Of a stretch of DNA of 64,000 nucleotides, positions 2,326 through 59,403 are shown one piece after another; position 1 is the first letter of the stretch, and every line of letters starts with the position of its first letter. This stretch comes from Candidatus Lloydbacteria bacterium RIFCSPHIGHO2_02_FULL_50_18 (GTDB lineage: Bacteria; Patescibacteriota; Minisyncoccia; Phycocordibacterales; UBA6899): assembly GCA_001821395.1 (NCBI GenBank), contig MHLM01000004.1, forward strand, positions 1 through 64,000, read 5' to 3'. Below the pieces are notes generated by a model. It worked only from the letters and a program-made list of their open reading frames with translations. It ran no database searches and was not told where the DNA came from. The translations under genes and the position numbers were made by a program.

Positions 2326-4413
2326 ATGATAACCAATGGTGAATTTTTTAACGCTACCCTTGAAGCCCTTGATTTTGAGGGTGACGACCAGCAAAGGCGT
2401 GACACCGAAGCCAATGCCGGCAACATAGTCCAAGCGGTCATGACCGCTTACGGTGCGCCGGCGGGAGGGGTTATTGACCCCACCTCAACACCCACACCTC
2501 CTCCTGTCGGACTAGTCTACGGACGTATTCAAAGCGGTAAGACTCGAGCGATGATCGCCAGTACTGCTCTTGCATTCGATAACGGTTTCCGCATTTCGGT
2601 CGTTATGACCAGCAATATAAATGATCTGGTGACACAGACGCATGGAGACTTTACGAGCGGCCTTCATGGTGTGATGACCTTCACAAAAGATGATGATCTT
2701 GGGCGTGAGGTTGAGAATGTGAAGATGCAGATGGAAAGAGGCAATGGACGCCTACTCATTGTCTGTTCTAAAGGGGCGGGAAGCCTTCAGAACGTCTCTA
2801 CTTTTCTAACCAACATTGGAGCCGGTGAGTACCCCGCAATCATCTTCGACGATGAAGGAGACCAGGCGTCTCTCGACACGAACACAGCAAGGCGCGCTCG
2901 AGGCGAAGTCGCCATAGACCCCAGTACGATAAATCGCATCATTCAGAATAATCTCAAGGGTGCTTTGATTCGTCACGTCTACGTTAGTGTTACGGGGACG
3001 CCTCAAGCTGTACTTCTCCAGAGTGTTGGGTCAACACACCGCGCTTCGTTTATCACAATGCTACCTCCCGGCAGGTCATACATTGGAGGCGATCACTTTT
3101 TCAGCACAGGTGAACCGGAGGACAATCCTGATCGTCTAATCGAAATTGTTGAGCACGATGAGAAGGATCAGCTCCTAAATATGGACGCTATCGTGCCTGA
3201 TGGATTAAGGCACTCGATACTCTTTTTCCTTGTTTCAGCCTCTGCCGCGATTCTAACAATAGGCCCCAAATCGAAAGGATATGCGCATCTATCTCACCCG
3301 AGTCTTCGGAACAATGAACAGGAGTGTGCTGAAACGCGTATAAACGTGTTCCTGGCTGAAGTCGCTTCAGCATTATTTGAGGAAGGAGAAACTGAGATTG
3401 AGAGAGAGCTACGAGCGGCCTATGAGAATCTCCGTACGACACTAGGAGATGAGACTCCTGACTTCGCCGATGTGGTAGAGACCATCAAGAAGCAACTCGC
3501 AACGAGAAAGATTCTTGTGATAAACGCAAAGGTAAAGAGACAAGGTATTGCATACGGTCCCGGCCTAAACTTCTTAATCGGCGGTAACACTTTAGGGCGA
3601 GGTATTGCGGTAAAGAACTTGCTCGTAACCTACTACGTTCGGGATGCCCGAGTGTCACAAATAGATACAATGCACCAGCATGCCCGAATGTATGGGTATC
3701 GGTTGGCGACGTTAAAGCACACTAGGCTCTTTATCCCTAGACATCTTTACTACCGCTTCAGGGATATACACGAAAGTGATACGGATCTACGGGCATTCAT
3801 CGAGGCTCACAAGGATCAGCTACCAGGCTCGTTTCCAGTTGAATATACTGAGGAGCTTCGCACGACTCGGGGGAACGTTCTTGATGTGAACAACATGGAT
3901 GCCTTGCGTCCAAGGATGCATGTGTTCCCAAATTACGTAATAGTCCCTCAAGCTGTGAGGGGCTATGAACAAACTATCGAAAGAATGCGAGCGCGGTTTG
4001 TGCTTCCTACTGCAACAGAGCATGAGCTTGCCGCCGCGTATCCTGATGGACTGGAAATAAGTAAGGATGAAGCGATTGAATTAGCAACAGGCATCAAGAC
4101 TCATTCAAAGAATACATGGAGGGATAAGACCATCGCTGTCGTTATTGGAAAAGTCGCGGCACATTACAATGATCGAGTACTCCTTCGTTTTCGAACAGCG
4201 AACAGAACGGTGGGTGTCGATGGATTTATCTCGACGGGAGCAGTCTCCGGTGATGAACTCCGCACAGCACGCGATGGAGCAATCCCAACCCTATGGATCA
4301 TGTCGGTAACGACAAGAGGTGGAGACGGGGTTCCCGCAGGAGAACGTTTTATGTACCCAACATTCATCATCCCCGAGAACTTCCCTCGACTGTTCATGTT
4401 CAATCGTGGATAA
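2326..4413 (+). CDS. Z1-domain-like SF2/P-loop NTPase, putative restriction/defence component partnered with the adjacent cytosine methyltransferase
   Basis: Walker A GRIQSGKT, DEAD-like DDEGD, TGTP and helicase motif-VI-like HQHARMYGYR; immediately upstream of a Dcm-type MTase. Confidence 0.75.
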   Translation: MITNGEFFNATLEALDFEGDDQQRRDTEANAGNIVQAVMTAYGAPAGGVIDPTSTPTPPPVGLVYGRIQSGKTRAMIASTALAFDNGFRISVVMTSNINDLVTQTHGDFTSGLHGVMTFTKDDDLGREVENVKMQMERGNGRLLIVCSKGAGSLQNVSTFLTNIGAGEYPAIIFDDEGDQASLDTNTARRARGEVAIDPSTINRIIQNNLKGALIRHVYVSVTGTPQAVLLQSVGSTHRASFITMLPPGRSYIGGDHFFSTGEPEDNPDRLIEIVEHDEKDQLLNMDAIVPDGLRHSILFFLVSASAAILTIGPKSKGYAHLSHPSLRNNEQECAETRINVFLAEVASALFEEGETEIERELRAAYENLRTTLGDETPDFADVVETIKKQLATRKILVINAKVKRQGIAYGPGLNFLIGGNTLGRGIAVKNLLVTYYVRDARVSQIDTMHQHARMYGYRLATLKHTRLFIPRHLYYRFRDIHESDTDLRAFIEAHKDQLPGSFPVEYTEELRTTRGNVLDVNNMDALRPRMHVFPNYVIVPQAVRGYEQTIERMRARFVLPTATEHELAAAYPDGLEISKDEAIELATGIKTHSKNTWRDKTIAVVIGKVAAHYNDRVLLRFRTANRTVGVDGFISTGAVSGDELRTARDGAIPTLWIMSVTTRGGDGVPAGERFMYPTFIIPENFPRLFMFNRG

Positions 4414-4464
4414 GTTGCGTCATTGCCCCTCGAGTTTTTCCCCGATTAGTTCTATAATTCATAC

Positions 4465-5568
4465 ATGTCATCAAGACGTGCTAATAAATCAAAAGATATA
4501 AAAGTTGTTGACCTGTTCTGCGGTGTTGGAGGGCTGACACACGGTCTCATTCTTGAAGGATTGGATGTGGTTGCGGGTGTAGACAATGACGTCTCCTGCC
4601 AGTTCGCATTCGAACAAAATAACTCATCAAAGTTTATATACAAAGACGTTTCAAAGTTCTCGTCGAAGGAGCTGGAGGAACTATACGGGGATGCACCTGT
4701 GAAAGTATTAGTTGGTTGCGCTCCGTGCCAACCATTTTCGGCAATAAGTAAATCAAAGGCCATCGGAAAGGATGATGACCGTAATCGATGGGCACCGTTG
4801 TACCGGTTCATAAAACTTATACAGGACACAAAACCGGATGTGGTCTCAATGGAGAACGTTCCCGATCTTTGTAATACCAAAAAGTATCCGGTCTTCGCTG
4901 ACTTCCTGAAGTCTTTATCGGTGGCGGGATATAACGTCTCATATAAGGTTGTGGACGTTTCAAGGTATGGCGTGCCGCAGAAGAGGAGAAGGATGGTTTT
5001 GCTCGCATCTCGTCTGGGAGAAATTAGTCTCATTCCAGAGACGCACGATAAAACTAACGTCGTTACCGTACGAGAAACAATTGGACACTTGGAAAATTTA
5101 AAGGATGGTGAGGTTCATAAGCTCGATGTCCTACACCGTTCAAGCAGGTTGAGTGAGATGAATAAGAGGCGAATTATTGCCACACCAAAGAATGGCGGTA
5201 GCGCAAAGAGTTGGAGCGATGACCTGATGCCTGATTGTTTCAAGCGGGATAGTGGTAAGTCATACATGACGACTGTCTATGGAAGAATGAGGTGGGACGA
5301 TGCTTCTCCTACGATAACAACACACTGCACTACGTTAGGTGCTGGTCGGTATGGTCACCCAAAACAAAACCGAGCAATCTCTCTTCGTGAAGCCGCCTTG
5401 CTTCAAAGCTTTCCTGAGTATTATCAATTTGATCCGCCTGAAAAAATTTCGATGGTTAAGACAGCGAGACATATCGGAAATGCTGTCCCAGTTCAATTGG
5501 GCCGAGTAATCGGTGAAAGTATTAAAAGGCATATCGAAACTCATAGGGCTACAGCCCGGAGGAAGTAG
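4465..5568 (+). CDS. DNA (cytosine-5)-methyltransferase
   Basis: Motif I DLFCGVGG, motif IV GCAPCQPFS, motif VI ENVPDL, motif VIII QKRRRMVLL, motif X region ISLREAALLQSFPEYY. Confidence 0.9.
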   Translation: MSSRRANKSKDIKVVDLFCGVGGLTHGLILEGLDVVAGVDNDVSCQFAFEQNNSSKFIYKDVSKFSSKELEELYGDAPVKVLVGCAPCQPFSAISKSKAIGKDDDRNRWAPLYRFIKLIQDTKPDVVSMENVPDLCNTKKYPVFADFLKSLSVAGYNVSYKVVDVSRYGVPQKRRRMVLLASRLGEISLIPETHDKTNVVTVRETIGHLENLKDGEVHKLDVLHRSSRLSEMNKRRIIATPKNGGSAKSWSDDLMPDCFKRDSGKSYMTTVYGRMRWDDASPTITTHCTTLGAGRYGHPKQNRAISLREAALLQSFPEYYQFDPPEKISMVKTARHIGNAVPVQLGRVIGESIKRHIETHRATARRK

Positions 5569-5818
5569 ATTCAGCTCGCCTAAAAAGGTAGAATGAAGGT
5601 GTCACATCCTGTGACCACATAGCCTAAACCAGGAGCAATCCTGGCATGGCCACATAAATCCTACGCGACAGAAGCGGCCTCATAGGTCGGCTCTACTCGC
5701 GTAGGTCAGGTGTCCCGAAAGGGCCCTGGGTAATGCCCGAAAGGGTGTTATCGCCGATTCTGTGGGGCCACTTCTGTACCTACAGCTTCGGGATTATCAG
5801 AAAACCTACGCGAACAAT

Positions 5819-6325
5819 ATGAGAAATTCTCACCGGGGATTCATCCCTCTGGTGGCAATCATCCTACTCGGCCTAGTGGCTGTGGGTGGAGGGGTGGTTG
5901 CGACCATATCACTTAAGGGGCACGAAAGGGCTCCTGCTTCACCCGAGCAAATCGATTCTTTGGCCCCTGTTGCGGCACGTGTCGAGAGTTCTGCCACCAC
6001 TACGACAAGTACGAGCCCGGCGGGCACTAAGCCACCCGTTGAACAGATTGAGGTAGTGACCGAAAAGCAGGTCGTTTTAGATACAAAATCCAAGGAGATC
6101 TGCGACCAAATCGCCTCGGTTCAAATCGATACCTCCAAGCAGTCCCTTGTTGAGGACATGAGAGTGCTCTGTGAGCTGATCGATAAAGGGCGCTATCAGG
6201 AGGGAGAGGAGCTTGATACGGCAACCACACGACTACATGAGAAGTGGGAGTTGTGGCTCAAGGTCCAAACGGCCCAAGAATCAGCAGAAAGCAGGGCCCA
6301 GGACATAGAAAACGGTACCAGATAG
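5819..6325 (+). CDS. membrane-anchored hypothetical protein (single N-terminal TM, Ser/Thr-rich linker, acidic C-domain)
   Basis: Track ORF 5762..6325 starts with GTG; ATG at 5819 gives MRNSHRG + TM helix; island cargo. Confidence 0.45.
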   Translation: MRNSHRGFIPLVAIILLGLVAVGGGVVATISLKGHERAPASPEQIDSLAPVAARVESSATTTTSTSPAGTKPPVEQIEVVTEKQVVLDTKSKEICDQIASVQIDTSKQSLVEDMRVLCELIDKGRYQEGEELDTATTRLHEKWELWLKVQTAQESAESRAQDIENGTR

Positions 6326-6335
6326 CCTCACACAT

Positions 6336-6445
6336 CGAATTACAGCGAATTAAAATAGGGGTCTTGGACCGAATTAAACCGAATTAAATACGGGGGTCTG
6401 GAGCGGATCAAAGCGAATTAAATCGAGGGGTATGGAATGCGCCGG
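6336..6445. repeat. iteron-like array: five CGAATTA(AA) copies, three followed by a G-run and TCTGGA-like tail
   Basis: cgaatta at 6336, 6346, 6370, 6380, 6414, read directly; just upstream of the recombinase operon. Confidence 0.5.
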
Positions 6446-6704
6446 AAACTGAAAAAATACGAGAGATCGTTATCCACAAGGGTGGCACAGGTGTGCAACC
6501 TTGTGCGATTTGTGCAGAAGCATAAACTAAAGAGGTACCTATCTGGTTAAACCAGATTAGTCTCGGAGTAAGACCCGGGCTAAACACTGAGGCTGGGAAC
6601 CTCGCTAGGCAGGGATCATCGAGAGGCTGCCATTTCATCTCACGAACGTGGGGTGCGATGGCAGTCTCTTTGCTGTTAAGCATCACACGCCGTGCACACA
6701 CGGC

Positions 6705-6884
6705 ATGCTATCTCTCGAAGAATGTAAGAAACACATACGAAGTCTGGACTTACCTGATGATGAGGTCGAAAAAATCAGGGACCTTTTGTATGCCTTTGTG
6801 GAAAGAACGCTGGACTATGGCCTTGAAAAAGGCATGTTTGTTGTTGCACATAAGCCATGTCATCCAACCGATCAAGAAAACTAG
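6705..6884 (+). CDS. possible small acidic protein upstream of / overlapping the recombinase start (excisionase/regulator-like by position only)
   Basis: Inner ATG of track ORF 6648..6884; charged helical-looking sequence; overlaps the recombinase start by 28 nt. Confidence 0.25.
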   Translation: MLSLEECKKHIRSLDLPDDEVEKIRDLLYAFVERTLDYGLEKGMFVVAHKPCHPTDQEN

Positions 6885-8458
6885 ATTCAAGCTCAGCACT
6901 AATCTATTGCCGAGTCTCCTCGGATCGCCAGGCGAAAGAGGGTCATGGACTCGATAGTCAGGAGCATCGATGTCGCGAGTACGCGAAGTCGAAGAGTTAT
7001 GAAGTGGAAGACGTATTTACCGATACCTTCAGTGGCGGCGGTGATTTCTTGAAACGGCAAGGCATGGTCGCGTTACTACATTACATAGATAAGCACCCGC
7101 ATAGAAACTATGTTGTGGTCTTCGACGACTTAAGCCGATTTGCTCGAGATGTCGCGGCTCATATAAGGCTTCGACAAGAGTTTGATAAAAGAGACACAAA
7201 GATTGAGTGCCCAAACTTCACGTTTGAAGATACGCCAGAGGGTGAATTGGTGGAGAACATTATGGCGGCACAGAATCAGTACCACAGGAAAAGCAACAGG
7301 AGACAGGTAATTCAGAAGATGAAAGCTCGACTTGAGAAGGGGTATTGGCCTCACTATCCGCCACCGGGCTACAAGCAAGCGAACGATCCAGTACACGGTA
7401 AGCTCCTAAAACCAATAGAGCCTCGGGCAAGCATAATCAGAGAAGCCTTTGAAGGGTTTGCTTCTGATCGCTTCATGACTCAGACCGACGTCATGTACTT
7501 CCTACGAGGGACTGAATATAACAATGGCAGACCTGTTTACGTGGAAGGAGTCAGGCGTCTGCTCCGCCGGGTGGTATATGCCGGTTATGTCGAGCGTGAG
7601 GAATGGGATGTGTCGAGACGTAAGGGACAGCATGAAGCACTGATTAGTTTGGAAGTGTTCGAAAAAGTCCAAGCAAAGCTCGATGGCAAGTGTAGGGTGC
7701 GCACGCGGATAAGTGACAAACTCGACTTCGCACTGAGAGGCTCAATCCTGTGTCACGAGTGTAGGCGTCCACTAACGGGAAGCTGGAGCAGAGGGAGGAG
7801 CAAGATGTACCGATTCTACCGATGTAACACGCCGTCATGCGCGCGCTATAACAAGAGCCTCAATGGTGATTTCGTGGATGAGAGATTCAAAGTGTTACTT
7901 GAGTCTGCTGTACCGCGAGCAGAACTTCTTGAACTCACACGGGCGATTGCTCTAGACGTATGGTCAAAGAGAATTAAGACCATAGATGAGCGTCGGACAG
8001 AGCTCGAGAGGAAGCTCACTGAAACACGACGGCAGGTAGAGGTATTCTCAGACCGGATCGTCAGAGCAATAGACGAATCGATGGTTCGAGTGTACGAGGA
8101 GCAAATTGTCCGAATAAGGGAAGAGGGACTTCTCATCCAAGAACAACTGCAGAAACTCGGAGTATCAGCCTCGAGCTTTGAAACCGCACTTGAAGTGGTG
8201 ATGGGATTCCTAAAAGACCCAGTGTTCATATACGAAAATGGAGACATGAACGCAAAAAGACTAGTCCTAGGACTAGTCTTCGCGGAGAAATTGGCGTTCC
8301 ATCACAAGGATGGCTTTGAAACCGCTCAAAAGCCAATGTTAATCGGGCTATTTGAACAGATTCACACCAAGGATTCCCAAGATGTGGAGATGGCGGGGGC
8401 GAACCCGCGTCCAGCAGAGAAGAGTACAAAGATCTACGTGCGTAGGTTGTCTCATTGA
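6857..8458 (+). CDS. large serine recombinase (resolvase/invertase-type catalytic domain + recombinase and zinc-ribbon C-terminal region)
   Basis: N-terminal ALIYCRVSSDRQ catalytic serine motif; 533 aa; Cys cluster CHECRRPLTG...CNTPSC; coiled-coil C-terminus. Confidence 0.9.
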   Translation: MSSNRSRKLDSSSALIYCRVSSDRQAKEGHGLDSQEHRCREYAKSKSYEVEDVFTDTFSGGGDFLKRQGMVALLHYIDKHPHRNYVVVFDDLSRFARDVAAHIRLRQEFDKRDTKIECPNFTFEDTPEGELVENIMAAQNQYHRKSNRRQVIQKMKARLEKGYWPHYPPPGYKQANDPVHGKLLKPIEPRASIIREAFEGFASDRFMTQTDVMYFLRGTEYNNGRPVYVEGVRRLLRRVVYAGYVEREEWDVSRRKGQHEALISLEVFEKVQAKLDGKCRVRTRISDKLDFALRGSILCHECRRPLTGSWSRGRSKMYRFYRCNTPSCARYNKSLNGDFVDERFKVLLESAVPRAELLELTRAIALDVWSKRIKTIDERRTELERKLTETRRQVEVFSDRIVRAIDESMVRVYEEQIVRIREEGLLIQEQLQKLGVSASSFETALEVVMGFLKDPVFIYENGDMNAKRLVLGLVFAEKLAFHHKDGFETAQKPMLIGLFEQIHTKDSQDVEMAGANPRPAEKSTKIYVRRLSH

Positions 8459-8775
8459 TTTCATGTCGTAAGGGCTAGGCAAACAAAACCTTACGAGCAC
8501 TACTCCCTTAGTTTTCGTTATCGTATTCGGGTACTACGATTCTTATCCTGAAAATATGACACGAAGGATGGGCCTATCAGGCGTACTCCCGCTTCGCGCC
8601 GTCTACTTAAGCGTAGGCGAAAGCGAAATTGTTGGCCTTAAAGTAAGGCGTCGCAATTCCACCGGTGCTTTTCTTGGCACTTTCAAGTTGTTCGCGTGAT
8701 TTACGAGACTACGAACATGCTCGGCACGCACGATATACTACTTCTTCCACTGTCGAAACATTTCATCCCCCTAAA

Positions 8776-12028: not shown

Positions 12029-12430
12029 ATGGCGGAACTGCTATCTTTGAAGCCTTATGCTGCGACGATGGAAGTCTCACTTGAGCTACCGCTCATTACG
12101 ATGCAGGTCGTGCTATGTTTTGGTCCGTTCAACTCGCTTGAAAAGGCGGAAGAGTGGACCGGAGAGGTAGAACGTCTTCATCGGGGAATCGAGACCGAGG
12201 AGGTATCCAAGAGTGGCGAAGTCTTCGACGCGACGGGGCTTCCGACCGGTGCATTCGTTCGGTCGTATGTTCATGGAACGGACATCATTCAAGTTGGTCA
12301 GTCCGCGCGGAAACAGGGAAATCTTATTCCGGTAAACACACCCGAAGTTGACGCGCGCGATCTGCATATCTATGCTCTCCGGGCAATTGAAGAGGCAACA
12401 AATATGGCATTCATGGCGCTCGGTCTGTAG
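12029..12430 (+). CDS. hypothetical protein
   Basis: GGGAG 7 nt before ATG; protein-like composition; followed by a terminator. Confidence 0.45.
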   Translation: MAELLSLKPYAATMEVSLELPLITMQVVLCFGPFNSLEKAEEWTGEVERLHRGIETEEVSKSGEVFDATGLPTGAFVRSYVHGTDIIQVGQSARKQGNLIPVNTPEVDARDLHIYALRAIEEATNMAFMALGL

Positions 12431-12449
12431 CATCGTGCGGTGTCTGAAT

Positions 12450-12474
12450 CAGGGGCGCTCCCCCTGGTTTTTTC
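12450..12474 (+). terminator. rho-independent terminator
   Basis: cagggg-cgctc-cccctg then TTTTTT. Confidence 0.55.
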
Positions 12475-12518
12475 TTTGATTGAATGAAATGCAATAATAG
12501 ATTACTCTATAGGAGTTG

Positions 12519-12676
12519 TACCCACCCGTAGCAGAGTTGGTAAGCCAGCTCACTACGTGAGGCCTGGCTGGCTTTTTCGAAAATGAGCCGGCCACCGCCA
12601 GCGCATTCACACAACTCGTCTTCTCCGTTACACTACGAAGGCGATCTCGAATAGAGCGGTCGTCTTTGGAAAGGCA
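12519..12676 (+). pseudogene. degenerate tRNA 5' fragment (copy of the 5' half of the downstream tRNA-Ile) with a ~111-nt structured element inserted in its D-loop
   Basis: cccacccgtagcAgagttgg ... tagagcggtcgtcttt matches the tRNA at 12860 except D-stem mismatches; no intact 3' half. Confidence 0.5.
12541..12651 (+). ncRNA. copy 1 of a conserved ~112-nt hairpin-rich element (terminator-like hairpin + TTTTT, CACC-loop hairpin, ACACAACTCGTCTTCTCCG and CGATCTCGAA blocks)
   Basis: Same element at 58634..58746 with compensatory changes in two stems (AGCCAG/CTGGCT vs AGCCAA/TTGGCT; GCCGGC..GCCAGC vs GTCGCC..GGCGAC). Confidence 0.55.
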
Positions 12677-12857
12677 GCGAGAGATAAATGAAAGTTCTAC
12701 TTTCATTTGAATCGAGTGAACCTTTCCGTTCTTTGAGAATTTTGTGCACGCATAGCTCAGTTGGTAGAGCGGTCGTCTTTAGAAGAGCAACGAGAGATAA
12801 ATGAAAGTTCTACTTTCTTTTGAATCGAGTGAACTCTTCGCATTCTTTGAAAACTTA
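12677..12857 (+). repeat. two tandem ~110-nt units, each [~77-nt spacer with gaaagt-tct-actttc hairpin] + [tRNA 5' half]
   Basis: Spacers 12677-12745 and 12781-12857 are ~85% identical; second unit contains tRNA 5' half 12746-12780. Confidence 0.6.
12746..12780 (+). other. tRNA 5' half (acceptor GCACGCA, D-arm, anticodon stem GTCGT, loop start CTTT); its matching 3' half is at 12952..12986
   Basis: Acceptor 5' GCACGCA pairs with TGCGTGC at 12979-12985; stems GTCGT/ACGAC perfect. Confidence 0.55.
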
Positions 12858-12859
12858 GT

Positions 12860-12932
12860 CCACCCGTAGCTCAGTTGGTAGAGCGGTCGTCTTATACACG
12901 ATTGGTCCCTGGTTCGAGTCCAGGCGGGTGGA
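12860..12932 (+). tRNA. tRNA-Ile (anticodon UAU; loop CTTATAC), no encoded CCA
   Basis: Hand-folded cloverleaf: acceptor CCACCCG/CGGGTGG, D-stem GCTC/GAGC, anticodon stem GTCGT/ACGAT, T-arm CCTGG-TTCGAGT-CCAGG. Confidence 0.7.
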
Positions 12933-12951
12933 CTCAGTTTTGAAAGAATTT

Positions 12952-12986
12952 ACGACTGGTCCTAGGTTCGAGTCCTAGTGCGTGCA
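12952..12986 (+). other. tRNA 3' half (anticodon-stem 3' strand ACGAC, T-arm CTAGG-TTCGAGT-CCTAG, acceptor TGCGTGC) matching the 5' half at 12746..12780
   Basis: Read directly; separated from its 5' half by ~170 nt that contain the intact tRNA-Ile. Confidence 0.55.
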
Positions 12987-13001
12987 CAAAGATTTGAAAG
13001 G

Positions 13002-13030
13002 CCGTACGATTGGTCCCCGGTTCGACTAAG
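13002..13030 (+). pseudogene. truncated tRNA 3' fragment (ACGAT TGGTC CCCGG TTCGACT then unrelated sequence)
   Basis: Anticodon-stem 3' strand and T-arm 5' strand only; T-stem 3' strand and acceptor are missing. Confidence 0.4.
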
Positions 13031-13160
13031 AGTCAGTAGATTATTTTTTGAAAGCCGGAAGTGCTTTTTTTGAGAGGCAACGCCGCTTAATGCTTGCATG
13101 TTCAGAGTTTTTGATTAGCATGAAGAGTAGCAGCGTACATCAACAAAAAGAGGGGGTGTT

Positions 13161-33707: not shown

Positions 33708-33796
33708 TGCGGAGGGGGCGAGATTCGAACTCGCGGACCGTTTAACGGGTCGACAGTTTAGTAAACTGTTGATTTAAACCACTCATCCACCCCTCC
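33708..33796 (-). tRNA. type II (long variable arm) tRNA, Ser-like; anticodon loop TTACTAA gives nominal anticodon ACU (unusual); CA after the discriminator
   Basis: Hand-folded: acceptor GGAGGGG/CCCCTCC, 3-bp D-stem, anticodon stem ACAGT/ACTGT, long arm, T-arm GCGAG-TTCGAAT-CTCGC. Confidence 0.5.
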
Positions 33797-34381: not shown

Positions 34382-34471
34382 TTTAAGCCATTGGCGGAGA
34401 GGGCGGGATTCGAACCCGCGAGGGGTTTTATCCCCTGCCACGTTAGCAGTGTGGTGCCTTCAGCCGCTCGG
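34382..34471 (-). tRNA. tRNA-Ser (anticodon GCU), CCA encoded
   Basis: Hand-folded type II cloverleaf: acceptor GGAGAGG/CCTCTCC, loop CTGCTAA, long arm, T-arm GCGGG-TTCGAAT-CCCGC. Confidence 0.8.
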
Positions 34472-34581
34472 CCACCTCTCCAAAATATTATTGCTCATGT
34501 AACTTAGCATATTGAGCGCTACTTATCAAAGTACCCCAAGAGAAAGCAGCATTTGGGAAGTTCTGGCTATTTCCCGCGAAC

Positions 34582-57588: not shown

Positions 57589-58209
57589 ATGAACGCGCTC
57601 GAAAAATTGATGCATTCTCGCCTAGCAAACATTTTACTCGGTACCTTCCTTTTTACTCTCTGGATGCTCTTCGTGTGGGTGCATATTCGTGCATTCATTG
57701 ATACGGACAAGTTCGCGTATCTGGTCTTTTGTGTTTCAGAGTCTTTACAGGCAATTCTTTTCCTTTTCCGCTCGATGCCAAAAGTGGTATCCATGGACCC
57801 CTTCGATTGGCTCGTTGCGGGAGGGGGGACACTCACTCCGCTTTTGTTGCGTCCGACGGACGTGCTTTTATGGGGGCACGGGGACATCATCGTTGTCGGC
57901 GCGGTGATCATCCAGATCATTGCATTGCTTTCGCTCAATAGGAGTTTTGCGCTCGTCGCTGCAAACAGATCGATCAAGACGCTTGGCGCGTATCGTATTG
58001 TGAGGCATCCAATGTACGCAAGCTACATTTTTCTTTTTTCAGGATATTTTTTGCTCAATGCGTCGATGATGAATGCGGGGCTGATCATCTTTGCTTGGGT
58101 ATTCATGGGCCTTCGACTTATAAGGGAAGAGAAGCTCTTGTCGGAAGACGTTGCATACCAGGAATACAAAAAACAGGTCAAATGGAGGCTGATTCCGTTT
58201 GTTTATTGA
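57589..58209 (+). CDS. isoprenylcysteine carboxyl methyltransferase (ICMT)/phospholipid methyltransferase family membrane protein
   Basis: C-terminal RHPMY...EE..L...FG..Y..Y motif, multi-TM; start uncertain (track ORF begins 57517). Confidence 0.65.
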   Translation: MNALEKLMHSRLANILLGTFLFTLWMLFVWVHIRAFIDTDKFAYLVFCVSESLQAILFLFRSMPKVVSMDPFDWLVAGGGTLTPLLLRPTDVLLWGHGDIIVVGAVIIQIIALLSLNRSFALVAANRSIKTLGAYRIVRHPMYASYIFLFSGYFLLNASMMNAGLIIFAWVFMGLRLIREEKLLSEDVAYQEYKKQVKWRLIPFVY

Positions 58210-58300
58210 AAAATTGAACATTTAGAAGAAATAGTGTACGATTTTGCTTGTTGTTCCATTTGCCTGCTTGATATTTACTGTTCAGCTGTTTGTTGCAGAG

Positions 58301-58326
58301 AATATTTGAAGTGCCGTCGTAGCTGT
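58301..58326 (+). repeat. partial upstream duplicate of the tRNA-Thr(GGU) leader + first 13 nt
   Basis: atttgaagtgccgtcgtagct repeated at 58338-58362 where it continues into the intact tRNA. Confidence 0.55.
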
Positions 58327-58348
58327 TTTGGTAGATAACATTTGAAGT

Positions 58349-58424
58349 GCCGTCGTAGCTCAGCTGGTAGAGCATCTCCATGGTAAGGAGAAGGTCCCCG
58401 GTTCGATCCCGGGCGACGGCTCCA
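58349..58424 (+). tRNA. tRNA-Thr (anticodon GGU), CCA encoded
   Basis: Acceptor GCCGTCG/CGACGGC, loop ATGGTAA, T-arm CCCGG-TTCGATC-CCGGG. Confidence 0.85.
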
Positions 58425-58436
58425 TGATCGGGATAG

Positions 58437-58485
58437 TGTGCCGCCTTAGCTCAGTTGGCAAAAGAAAGTCAGACAGCTCACTCGT
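58437..58485 (+). pseudogene. partial 5' duplicate of tRNA-Thr(CGU) (first 23 nt) followed by a degenerate anticodon-arm-like hairpin
   Basis: gtgtgccgccttagctcagttgg identical to 58531-58553; then cactcg-tta-cgagtg. Confidence 0.5.
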
Positions 58486-58534
58486 TACGAGTGTTGAGGA
58501 AGATGGTGTAAAATAGTGAACAATTGAATAGTGT

Positions 58535-58610
58535 GCCGCCTTAGCTCAGTTGGTAGAGCATCTCACTCGTAACGAGAAGGTCCGCAGTTCGATCCTGCGA
58601 GGCGGCTCCA
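58535..58610 (+). tRNA. tRNA-Thr (anticodon CGU), CCA encoded
   Basis: Acceptor GCCGCCT/AGGCGGC, loop CTCGTAA, T-arm CGCAG-TTCGATC-CTGCG; A31·C39 mismatch. Confidence 0.75.
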
Positions 58611-58620
58611 AGTAAATAGT

Positions 58621-58803
58621 TTCGCTCAGTTGGTAAGCCAAGTCCGCAAAGCCAGACACTGGGTTGGCTTTTTCGTAGCAGTGTCGCCCACCGGCGACGC
58701 ACCACACAACTCGTCTTCTCCGCTACGCTGCGAAAACGATCTCGAATAGAGCATCTCACTCGTAACGAGAAGGTCCGCAGTTCGATCCTGCGAGGCGGCT
58801 CTA
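58621..58803 (+). pseudogene. partial copy of tRNA-Thr(CGU) lacking the 5' acceptor strand and ending CTAG instead of CCA, with the ~113-nt structured element inserted in the D-loop
   Basis: gctcagttgg | element | tagagcatctcactcgtaacgagaaggtccgcagttcgatcctgcgaggcggctctag. Confidence 0.55.
58634..58746 (+). ncRNA. copy 2 of the conserved ~112-nt hairpin-rich element
   Basis: Aligns with 12541..12651 over full length with stem-preserving substitutions. Confidence 0.55.
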
Positions 58804-58923
58804 GAAAAAGAACGTAGTATTTTTTTGTCCGCCTCAAGAAAATAACTGCTTGTTTTCTGGCAGGATCGAATAGCGAAGCTAAAAAGCCGCGCATATGCGC
58901 GGCTTTGTGTACTCACTCATTTC

Positions 58924-59403
58924 TCATGAAAGTTTTCCGGAGAAGAATAAGCGTCGAAGGATGCAGGGAATGAGGAGTATATTCCCCAGCAGAAAGAGTA
59001 GCGACCCCATCCATCGGCAAATGTCTCCGATGCTGACGAGATTGACTCCTCCCTCGAAAGGGTAGTCGAGCCATTTGCCCCACCACCTGATCGCGATACC
59101 TGGCGCGCCTTCCGGTATGTACTTCTCCCAATCGGGGAAATCGACCCGAATATGATCTGCGAGAAAGAGCAGCTTTCCGTCGGAAACGAATTTGCGCGGA
59201 GTCCCGTAGTTGGTCATGATAAATCCGGGTGTTTCAGAAATGACCGGCATAACTCCGTCGTTCACTTCGACCACAACTCCGTTCATGACGATCCCCCATG
59301 CATTCAATGCCAGGCCGGTCACAACAAGAAGGGCGAGCATGGTATCAACGAGACCCCACATCGTACGATCTCTCGTCAAAGAGAGTGTGTTTTTCAATCC
59401 CAC
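58924..59403 (-). CDS. hypothetical membrane protein (N- and C-terminal TM segments)
   Basis: Complete ORF; no family confidently recognised. Confidence 0.45.
   Translation of the reverse strand: MGLKNTLSLTRDRTMWGLVDTMLALLVVTGLALNAWGIVMNGVVVEVNDGVMPVISETPGFIMTNYGTPRKFVSDGKLLFLADHIRVDFPDWEKYIPEGAPGIAIRWWGKWLDYPFEGGVNLVSIGDICRWMGSLLFLLGNILLIPCILRRLFFSGKLS

Follow-up and report, generated by a model that had tools for sequence, protein, structure and literature searches.

A small structured non-coding insert in truncated tRNA copies of Candidatus Lloydbacteria-type bacteria: a candidate family of non-autonomous mobile elements

We analyzed the first 64,000 nucleotides (forward strand) of contig MHLM01000004.1 of Candidatus Lloydbacteria bacterium RIFCSPHIGHO2_02_FULL_50_18 (assembly GCA_001821395.1), referred to below as the window. 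A truncated copy of tRNA-Thr(CGU) in this DNA carries a short insert that we term element E. On balance, and with slightly better than even confidence, we read E as representing a family, not previously described, of small mobile insertion elements that are non-coding and non-autonomous and occur in Candidatus Lloydbacteria-type bacteria of the candidate phyla radiation (CPR). We favor mobility because E has fixed ends, is bordered by TA on both sides, occurs in three target contexts and shows presence/absence polymorphism. E codes for nothing and would therefore be moved in trans. The insert and its host copy at the tRNA-Thr(CGU) locus are arranged as follows.

58535..58610, plus strand: intact tRNA-Thr(CGU) (ARAGORN; Rfam RF00005, 63.3 bits), 3' end ...GGCGGCTCCA
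58611..58623, plus strand: spacer agtaaatagtttc, 13 nt, from the intact gene to the truncated copy (sequence)
58624..58635, plus strand: 5' piece of the truncated tRNA copy, gctcagttggta / gctcagttggTA, tRNA positions 10-21 (sequence and alignment with the intact gene)
58636..58746, plus strand: element E, copy B, 111 nt, AGCCAAG...GATCTCGAA, with TA on either side (covariance model R1, 117.9 bits, E-value 6e-24)
58747..58801, plus strand: 3' part of the truncated tRNA copy, positions 20-73 (blastn, 55/55 identical to 58554-58608)
58802..58845, plus strand: TAG replacing CCA, followed by the ancestral tRNA trailer (trailer alignment with the related locus L015)

A first-pass annotation of this DNA had described a second, 5'-truncated tRNA-Thr(CGU) copy with an insert downstream of the intact gene, and the sequence confirms this arrangement. 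The start of the copy, put at 58634, has to be moved to 58624, where the D-arm piece (58624-58635) begins. The insert is real as well, although its length of 113 nt is better given as 111 nt plus an ambiguous TA; 113 nt is obtained when one flanking TA is counted in. Copy B was inserted at the D-loop TA and has the same boundaries as the seven other full copies described below. The remainder of the tRNA had been called a perfect copy, and indeed all 55 positions of 58747-58801 agree with 58554-58608, with TAG in place of CCA behind them: the truncated copy ends ...GGCGGCTCTAG and the intact gene ...GGCGGCTCCA. Positions 1-9, the 5' strand of the acceptor stem, are missing from the truncated copy. 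The gene at 58535-58610 is the functional paralogue, and the syntenic relatives L015, L018 and L021 keep it as a single gene (loci and contigs used for comparison carry L numbers). The 13-nt spacer agtaaatagtttc matches 11/14 positions of CAATTGAATAGTGT, the leader of the tRNA-Thr(CGU) gene itself.

Two other features accompany the tRNA-Thr genes. About 25 nt downstream of the tRNA-Thr(CGU) 3' acceptor strand, the trailer contains a stretch complementary to it (window 58790-58836; L015:3925-3975). The window has gaggcgg...ccgcctc here and L015 has gagacggctc...gagccgtctc, which means that the pairing covaries with the tRNA. Furthermore, each tRNA-Thr gene is preceded by short pseudo-copies of the tRNA 5' part (window 58304-58339 and 58432-58476; gccgtcgtagctgttttggtagataacatt, gccgccttagctcagttggcaaaagaaagtcagacagctcactcgttacgag). 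In L015 and L018 these are conserved and follow the changes of the tRNA; they are therefore old and independent of E.

Repeats of tRNA fragments break short-read assemblies in this lineage, many contigs end in the tRNA-Ile locus that also carries E, and contig L031 looks chimeric; a collapsed or chimeric repeat would thus be one way to obtain the Thr arrangement. Such an artefact is scarcely credible here. Independent assemblies of different samples contain the same Thr locus with E, L012 being 100% and L013 98.5% identical to the window over the locus, and the substitutions of L013 distinguish the two tRNA copies. The Ile locus with E was likewise recovered in L024, L025 and L032. An assembly error, which the first-pass annotation had named as a refutation, is therefore excluded. 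Its second possible refutation, that the downstream copy is the expressed and spliced tRNA, falls because the 5' acceptor strand is absent and the T-stem is already mutated in L013. Contigs L026, L027, L029, L030, L022, L023 and L031 (upstream ends; different samples) stop within the nested tRNA-Ile locus.

We compared the Thr locus with its relatives. Strain L014 is 99.5% identical to the window through the intact tRNA-Thr(CGU), then diverges, and is devoid of E. More distant syntenic loci (L015/16, L018/19, L021) have a single tRNA-Thr(CGU) gene and neither E nor a partial copy. Since neither the 99.5% identical strain nor any of the more distant syntenic relatives has E, copy B is, as judged from these alignments, a recent arrival at the tRNA-Thr(CGU) locus. 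A second locus, tRNA-Thr(UGU), shows the same dichotomy: in L008 and L038 the intact gene is followed by a partial copy with E, and in L040 and L138/139 only the gene and a terminator are present, with neither E nor a partial copy. In L037, a partial Thr(UGU) copy follows after about 105 nt that resemble a degraded E.

The trailer of the single gene in L015 aligns with the window DNA after the E-bearing copy (42/64 identical, nearly continuous over the first ~43 nt), and the added DNA therefore lies upstream of the ancestral trailer. This added unit of about 190 nt comprises the tRNA 3' part, 13 nt, the D-arm piece and E. As the relatives without E (L015/16, L018/19, L021, L040, L138/139) also have no partial copy, duplication and E appear together. 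The duplicate-and-insert mechanism proposed by the first-pass annotation thus describes one possible order of events, and the comparisons do not establish that order. A coupled event, or the arrival of a unit carrying a tRNA segment, would fit the loci at least as well as duplication followed by insertion. Survivorship could also give this pattern, insertions into the only functional gene being lethal. In L013 the truncated copy differs by two substitutions, and one of them disrupts the T-stem. The host fragment of L038 is so badly degraded as to be barely recognizable, yet E there still scores 91.5 bits and has a compensatory change in its hairpin P3. Across these loci E retains its fold and its host fragments decay.

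In total, we found eight full copies of E (7 distinct sequences) and two that are cut by contig ends, in Lloydbacteria-type genomes and metagenomes. E is 109-116 nt long; all copies share the same boundaries, with AGCCA at the 5' and CTCGAA at the 3' end. Exact-pattern scans of genome and metagenome collections, in which 2/7 (genomes) and 3/4 (metagenomes) of the matches were real, added five copies: one in a syntenic Lloydbacteria metagenome-assembled genome (MAG; L003), one in a MAG labelled Saccharibacteria (L005) and three in one metagenome (L008, L009, L010). The covariance model R1 was built from six E copies and gives the full copies 91-128 bits. In the window it recognizes two copies only, A and B, and it later found the more diverged copy L038:3160-3272 (91.5 bits), which involves the same samples and probably comes from the same genome as the window. 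Since the exact-pattern scans are blind to diverged copies such as L038, which they missed, the family size given here is a lower bound. The 20-mer CACACAACTCGTCTTCTCCG of the E core occurs at two places only in the window, namely in copies A and B, with 0 expected by chance. Copy A is 70.5% identical to copy B, and all sampled copies are 70-77% identical to copy B; we therefore rejected an intragenomic donor for copy B among them.

Rfam scans of E at both loci and at related loci, at the gathering cutoff and at E-value <=10, returned tRNAs only. A blastn search of E against 50,697 phage and 72,556 plasmid records gave 0 matches, and pattern scans of viral contigs gave none or chance matches only. 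The window is chromosomal (FtsH, RecG, LigA (NAD-ligase), GatA, PBP1, type IV pilus genes; roughly 49% GC), and we rejected a phage or plasmid origin of E on these grounds. The protein encoded directly upstream of the Thr locus is 100% identical to one of a Candidatus Lloydbacteria MAG from the Rifle aquifer, which places the host among the CPR (Patescibacteria) bacteria. No reading frame is conserved in E on either strand. A minus-strand mini-ORF (open reading frame) behind the Shine-Dalgarno-like GGAGAAGA (GGAGAAGA-N-TTG/GTG) was discarded, as its frame shifts between copies and the peptides are unrelated past the start. In the literature, the only related work that we found concerns group I introns in tRNA anticodon loops of Patescibacteria (PMC13011429; 10.1101/2020.01.27.920355), and E is mentioned in neither source.

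All insertions share one kind of site, a TA within YKG-TA-RRG in a hairpin loop, and E always lies on the sense strand of the host RNA gene. The first type of site is the tRNA D-loop between positions 21 and 22 (...TTGG-TA, E, TA-GAGC), used in Thr-CGU (window, L013) and tRNA-Ile (window, L003, L005). A second one is the anticodon loop of tRNA-Thr(UGU) at 37/38 (...TTTG-TA, E, TA-AAGT; L008, L038). The third is the loop of a non-tRNA hairpin in L010 (ggtccTGTA, E, TAaggacc), which belongs to another small structured RNA beside a LAGLIDADG-like ORF. TA flanks E on both sides in 8/8 full copies, compared with a single TA in uninterrupted genes; L009 has GA at the 3' side. The additional TA either arose by duplication or belongs to E itself. 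GTA directly precedes every copy, and hairpins, dissimilar from each other, stand at both ends of E. In all tRNA-hosted cases examined, E sits in a disabled partial copy abutting an intact gene. The first-pass annotation had stated that E is always hosted in this way, which holds for every one of these cases and fails for L010 with its different structured RNA.

The second copy of the window lies in the tRNA-Ile locus.

12543..12651, plus strand: element E, copy A, 109 nt, in the D-loop of a tRNA-Ile-like 5' half, gttggTA, E, TAgagc (R1, 124 bits)
12519..12668, plus strand: X1, the host of copy A and outermost 5' half of the nested tRNA-Ile locus, cccacccgtagcAGagttggTA before and TAgagcggtcgtctt after E (sequence and alignment)

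Counterparts of copy A at the same site are 90.8% (L003) and 78.1% (L005) identical, and the D-stem of X1 is mutated (ctc>aga). This tRNA-Ile(UAU) locus is nested (window 12519-13040; also L003:5440-5870 on the minus strand, L005:6840-7160, L022 and L028). From its 5' side it consists of the X1 5' half with E, a structured spacer of about 80 nt, the X2 5' half (12746-), a spacer, the intact tRNA-Ile (12860-12933), the X2 3' half (12953-12987) and a degenerate X1 3' half (~13007-). Each 5' half runs to C32U33U34, and each 3' half resumes at position 39. The spacers show compensatory changes (ggaaagg/cctttcc vs gaagag/ctcttc vs tgaccgg/ccggtca), and leader and trailer lengthen the acceptor stem of the inner tRNA-Ile by about 17 bp.

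Alignment of the copies revealed a fold of three hairpins, located in copy B as follows.

58636..58673, plus strand: P1 (AGCCAA/TTGGCT) around the inner hairpin P1a, followed by an invariant T5 (alignment, RNAalifold)
58683..58698, plus strand: P2, a 6-bp hairpin GTCGCC-CACC-GGCGAC (compensatory change in 4/6 pairs)
58705..58746, plus strand: core CACAACTCGTCTTCTCCG, P3 hairpin (TCGTCTTC/GCGAAAACGA) and 3' tail TCTCGAA (alignment)

Across copies, P1 reads AGCCAR/YTGGCT with the inner hairpin, in which 4/5 pairs have changed in a compensatory manner. GGCTTTTTCG is invariant across all E copies. P2 varies (GTCTGC, GTCCGC, ACCGCC and others) around a loop CACC or CGCC. The single-stranded core CACAAC and the 8-bp P3 follow, and the tail ends TCGAA (ATCTCGAA in most copies, AACTCGAA in L005); in predicted folds its CGAA can pair with TTCG after the T-run. 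The core 18-mer is invariant in 7/8 full copies and in L009, the only truncated copy that spans it; in L038 it is altered, and the change in P3 is compensatory. Over the 7 distinct sequences the three-hairpin fold pairs in 95.4% of cells, with compensatory changes in 10/25 pairs. None of 500 shuffles (0/500) reached the observed covariation score, and sliding the 3' partners by 1-3 columns lowered the pairing to 22-47%. Thermodynamic z-scores are ordinary (-0.3 to -2.3), and we dropped stability as evidence for structure; the structural case for E therefore rests on covariation. Likewise, mismatch types (C-A 5 vs U-G 2) do not favor the plus strand, and wobble pairs were abandoned as a guide to the strand of function.

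The invariant AGCCAR...YTGGCT hairpin followed by T5 resembles an intrinsic terminator. A simple terminator scanner missed it because its loop exceeds 8 nt. P1 and the U-run probably end tRNA-operon transcription on the tRNA strand. Promoter-like motifs also occur in this region. TTCACA-17-TACACT lies within the Ile-locus E (window 12606-12634); it is conserved in L005 and reads TTCCCA in L003, but the Thr-type copies have it in degenerate form only. Upstream of X1, a further promoter-like site is conserved, TTGATT-16-TAGATT (~12476-12503).

These signals raise the question whether E serves its host as a regulatory non-coding RNA cassette, a terminator-plus-promoter insulator or a tRNA-operon leader or attenuator that is vertically inherited at tRNA loci. 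The invariance of P1 and the T5 run, and the promoter-like TTCACA-17-TACACT upstream of tRNA-Ile, would suit such a role. So would the much better conservation of E than of the flanking spacer between the window and L003, and the retention of the X1-E-spacer-tRNA-Ile module in a different gene neighborhood in L005. However, neither the 99.5% identical strain nor any syntenic relative has copy B, and the Thr-type copies have only degenerate versions of the promoter-like hexamers. The position of E relative to the tRNA also differs, being upstream at one locus and downstream at two others, and in L010 its host is an unrelated structured RNA. We regard this explanation as very unlikely.

For E as a mobile element, we envisage that an enzyme encoded elsewhere, either a site-specific recombinase or a single-strand, hairpin-recognizing transposase, would move it, and that its hairpins would be needed for the mobilization reaction or for transcription termination. 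E would survive only in redundant tRNA fragments, given that a cell would die if its sole functional tRNA were destroyed. On this view, insertions would survive only when coupled to partial duplication, or else the incoming unit would carry a tRNA segment that restores the gene. The 5' hairpin and U-run, by probably terminating tRNA-operon transcription, may make the insert tolerable or mildly useful.

Several observations weigh against this interpretation. No transposase or integrase adjoins any E copy, and the annotated ORFs of the window hold only one such enzyme, a serine recombinase beside the transfer-messenger RNA (tmRNA) gene some 50 kb away. E has no terminal inverted repeats and is hence no classical miniature inverted-repeat transposable element (MITE). 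Copies within the probable single genome are 60-73% identical and the donor of copy B is absent among the sampled copies, so that there is no sign of recent intragenomic bursts. The Ile-locus E is 90.8% identical between window and L003, compared with about half of the positions (by eye) in the adjoining spacer, which suggests selection in place and not a passive passenger. No simple cut-and-paste model explains the coupling to partial tRNA duplication. Finally, the covariation of the hairpins and a predicted fold that joins the ends of E are seen more typically in RNA-level elements than in DNA transposons.

The last point leads to the idea that E acts as RNA, a very small intron or ribozyme-like molecule that enters RNA loops by reverse splicing or cleavage-ligation and is fixed through cDNA; the 5'-truncated tRNA copies would then be retro-copies recombined beside the gene. 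E is always sense to its host RNA and sits in RNA loops, among them position 37/38, where tRNA introns canonically lie. Its hairpins covary strongly, and the predicted fold brings the 5' and 3' ends together via P1 and the TTCG/CGAA pairing. At two independent loci the partial tRNA copies begin at about position 10, as expected if a reverse transcriptase had been blocked. Patescibacteria are also rich in tRNA and rRNA introns (PMC13011429). The main counterpoint is that each tRNA-hosted E lies in a dead copy next to an intact E-free gene, a redundancy that efficient splicing would not need. No reverse transcriptase was seen, the mismatch types show no preference for the plus strand, and 111 nt is far below the size of any self-splicing intron. 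The core CACAAC can pair with GUUGG or UUGU just 5' of the insertion point, yet such pairing is short (3-7 bp) and shows no convincing covariation with the target, and we rejected a guide-like function on that basis. Taken together, an RNA-level origin seems unlikely to us.

The known intron and ribozyme classes were considered one by one. A group I intron was rejected: E gives no match to RF00028 even at E-value <=10, is 111 nt long where such introns measure about 200 nt or more, and ends in A. It is no group II intron either, since its ends are AGCCA...CGAA instead of GUGYG...AY and Rfam gives no match. A bulge-helix-bulge motif, with a 4-bp helix between two 3-nt bulges, was drawn by hand and fits L008 only (UUUG/CGAA); at the D-loop sites it would be UUGG/CGAA with a G-G mismatch, and in L010 only 2 bp form, so this class was rejected as well. 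Known self-cleaving ribozymes (hammerhead, twister, pistol, hatchet, hepatitis delta virus-like and others) found no match at E-value <=10 in 58200-59000 or 12400-13100. With tRNA introns, both the group I introns of Patescibacteria (PMC13011429) and the archaeal bulge-helix-bulge introns at 37/38 and non-canonical positions, E shares the sense insertion in tRNA loops (37/38 and D-loop) and a structured RNA whose ends are brought together; with the former it also shares the intron-rich bacterial group. It differs in its 111 nt, the absence of a group I core, of U at -1 and of a terminal G, and in hosts that are dead beside an intact, intron-less gene.

Other small inserts are found at tRNA genes of this lineage. 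Insert G, about 180 nt and structured, contains ...GGGTTTTCGGTGACGAGTCGACGAGTCCGAAAACCACC... (L028:350-535, L034:120-245, L010 (oriented) 1-230). In a variant strain it lies in the T-arm of the tRNA-Ile 3' half with the 7-nt repeat GAGTCCT on either side, and it starts tRNA 3'-end-like. G is absent from window 12953-12987 and has no Rfam match; a G-related RNA hosts E in L010. In L014:1664-1830, a segment F of about 155 nt comes after tRNA-Thr(CGU). A 19-nt stretch repeated from the tRNA 3' end borders it, and it contains an inverted T-arm-like piece. The DNA beyond F is absent from the window; the tRNA 3' end is a strain-variable junction. Because G (L028, L034) and F (L014) are flanked by tRNA 3'-end repeats, tRNA genes are general targets of small integrating units in this lineage.

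E could also be a conserved arm or a scar of larger tRNA-targeting integrative elements (islands, plasmids, phages) with the tRNA 3' part in their attachment site; the loci would be leftovers after interior deletion, or miniature derivatives mobilized by an integrase in trans. Classical elements of this kind bring a tRNA segment that restores the gene. The intact gene, the short insert and the 5'-truncated direct tRNA repeat running to the 3' end give the classical attL...attR picture, which recurs in L008 and L038, and the ancestral trailer stands behind the displaced copy. Inserts G and F, with their 7-19-nt flanking repeats of the T-arm and 3' end and a start like a tRNA 3' end, fit this picture too, as does the variable junction at the same tRNA-Thr(CGU) 3' end in L014; the anticodon loop is also used as a site by both. 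The loci thus show a flanking direct repeat of the tRNA 3' part and a restored gene, but no integrase within the element: the inserted unit is only about 190 nt and non-coding. Moreover, E interrupts the repeated tRNA segment instead of lying between repeats, with just 13-25 nt from the intact gene to the repeat. The same E with the same ends occurs at three positions in three hosts, one of them a non-tRNA hairpin, which a decaying scar would not yield, and integrase arm sites are not expected to show hairpin covariation. The D-loop, one of the sites of E, is not known as an integrase crossover site in tRNA genes. We consider this origin distinctly unlikely.

We therefore return to E as a non-autonomous mobile element and to its nearest counterparts among such elements. 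TA-target miniature elements (Neisseria Correia elements, IS630/Tc1-type MITEs) are likewise non-coding, ~100-150 bp long and bordered by TA, may carry terminator- or promoter-like signals and vary in presence between strains. The TA on both sides of 8/8 full copies agrees with the target-site duplication expected of a MITE. Terminal inverted repeats, in contrast, are missing, the 5' end of E (AGCCAAGTCC...) and its reverse-complemented 3' end (TTCGAGATCG...) being dissimilar. E also differs from these elements in its three covarying internal hairpins with an invariant single-stranded core, and in its strictly sense insertion into hairpin loops of RNA genes, accompanied by partial duplication of the target gene. 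Derivatives of IS200/IS605 (palindrome-associated transposable elements, PATE; the IS200 left-end terminator hairpin) resemble E in part: they lack inverted repeats, have hairpins close to their ends, of which the left one is terminator-like, and insert on one strand beside a short motif (here GTA, on the strand with positive GC skew). They differ from E, whose end hairpins are unlike each other and whose TA on both sides looks like a duplication or crossover dinucleotide foreign to this family. Neither TnpA (Y1) nor TnpB was found among the 20 larger window ORFs scanned. To judge from its sequence, E belongs to none of the standard classes (MITE, IS200/IS605 derivative, integrative island, and the group I, group II and bulge-helix-bulge introns). 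It forms a new family in which features of several known kinds of small mobile elements are combined.

A broader proposal would unite E, G, F and the spacers of the nested tRNA-Ile locus in a new class of miniature elements that parasitize tRNA genes as folded single strands. They may be minimal ribozyme- or intron-like RNAs that enter GUA-containing hairpin loops, or integrating units of about 200 nt with no more tRNA sequence than is needed to rebuild the interrupted gene. We put this forward tentatively, as possible though rather unlikely. If it were true, tRNA loci of CPR bacteria would record repeated "insert-and-restore" events.

CPR bacteria have tiny genomes and yet tolerate many insertions in RNA genes. 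As a DNA element, E would define a new targeting system specific for hairpin loops; if it acts at the RNA level, it would rank with the smallest known mobile introns or ribozymes. E-type repeats break metagenome assemblies at tRNA loci, and E-linked tRNA pseudogenes can mislead the tRNA counts that are used for genome completeness.

Two features elsewhere in the window concern neither E nor its hosts. The region 2326-8770 probably represents an island that integrated at the tmRNA gene. Encoded there are a Z1-domain protein (2326-4413) and a C5 cytosine methylase (4465-5568), along with a LOOT RNA (5621-5752, Rfam 51.9 bits) and the large serine recombinase (6857-8458), whose ORF overlaps with its 3' end the tmRNA (8382-8770, minus strand; Rfam 119.9 bits), a gene that ARAGORN missed. 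In addition, two tRNA-Ser genes are located about 600 nt apart at 33709-33796 and 34392-34481 (minus strand), for which ARAGORN gave one unusual anticodon, ACU, and one GCU.

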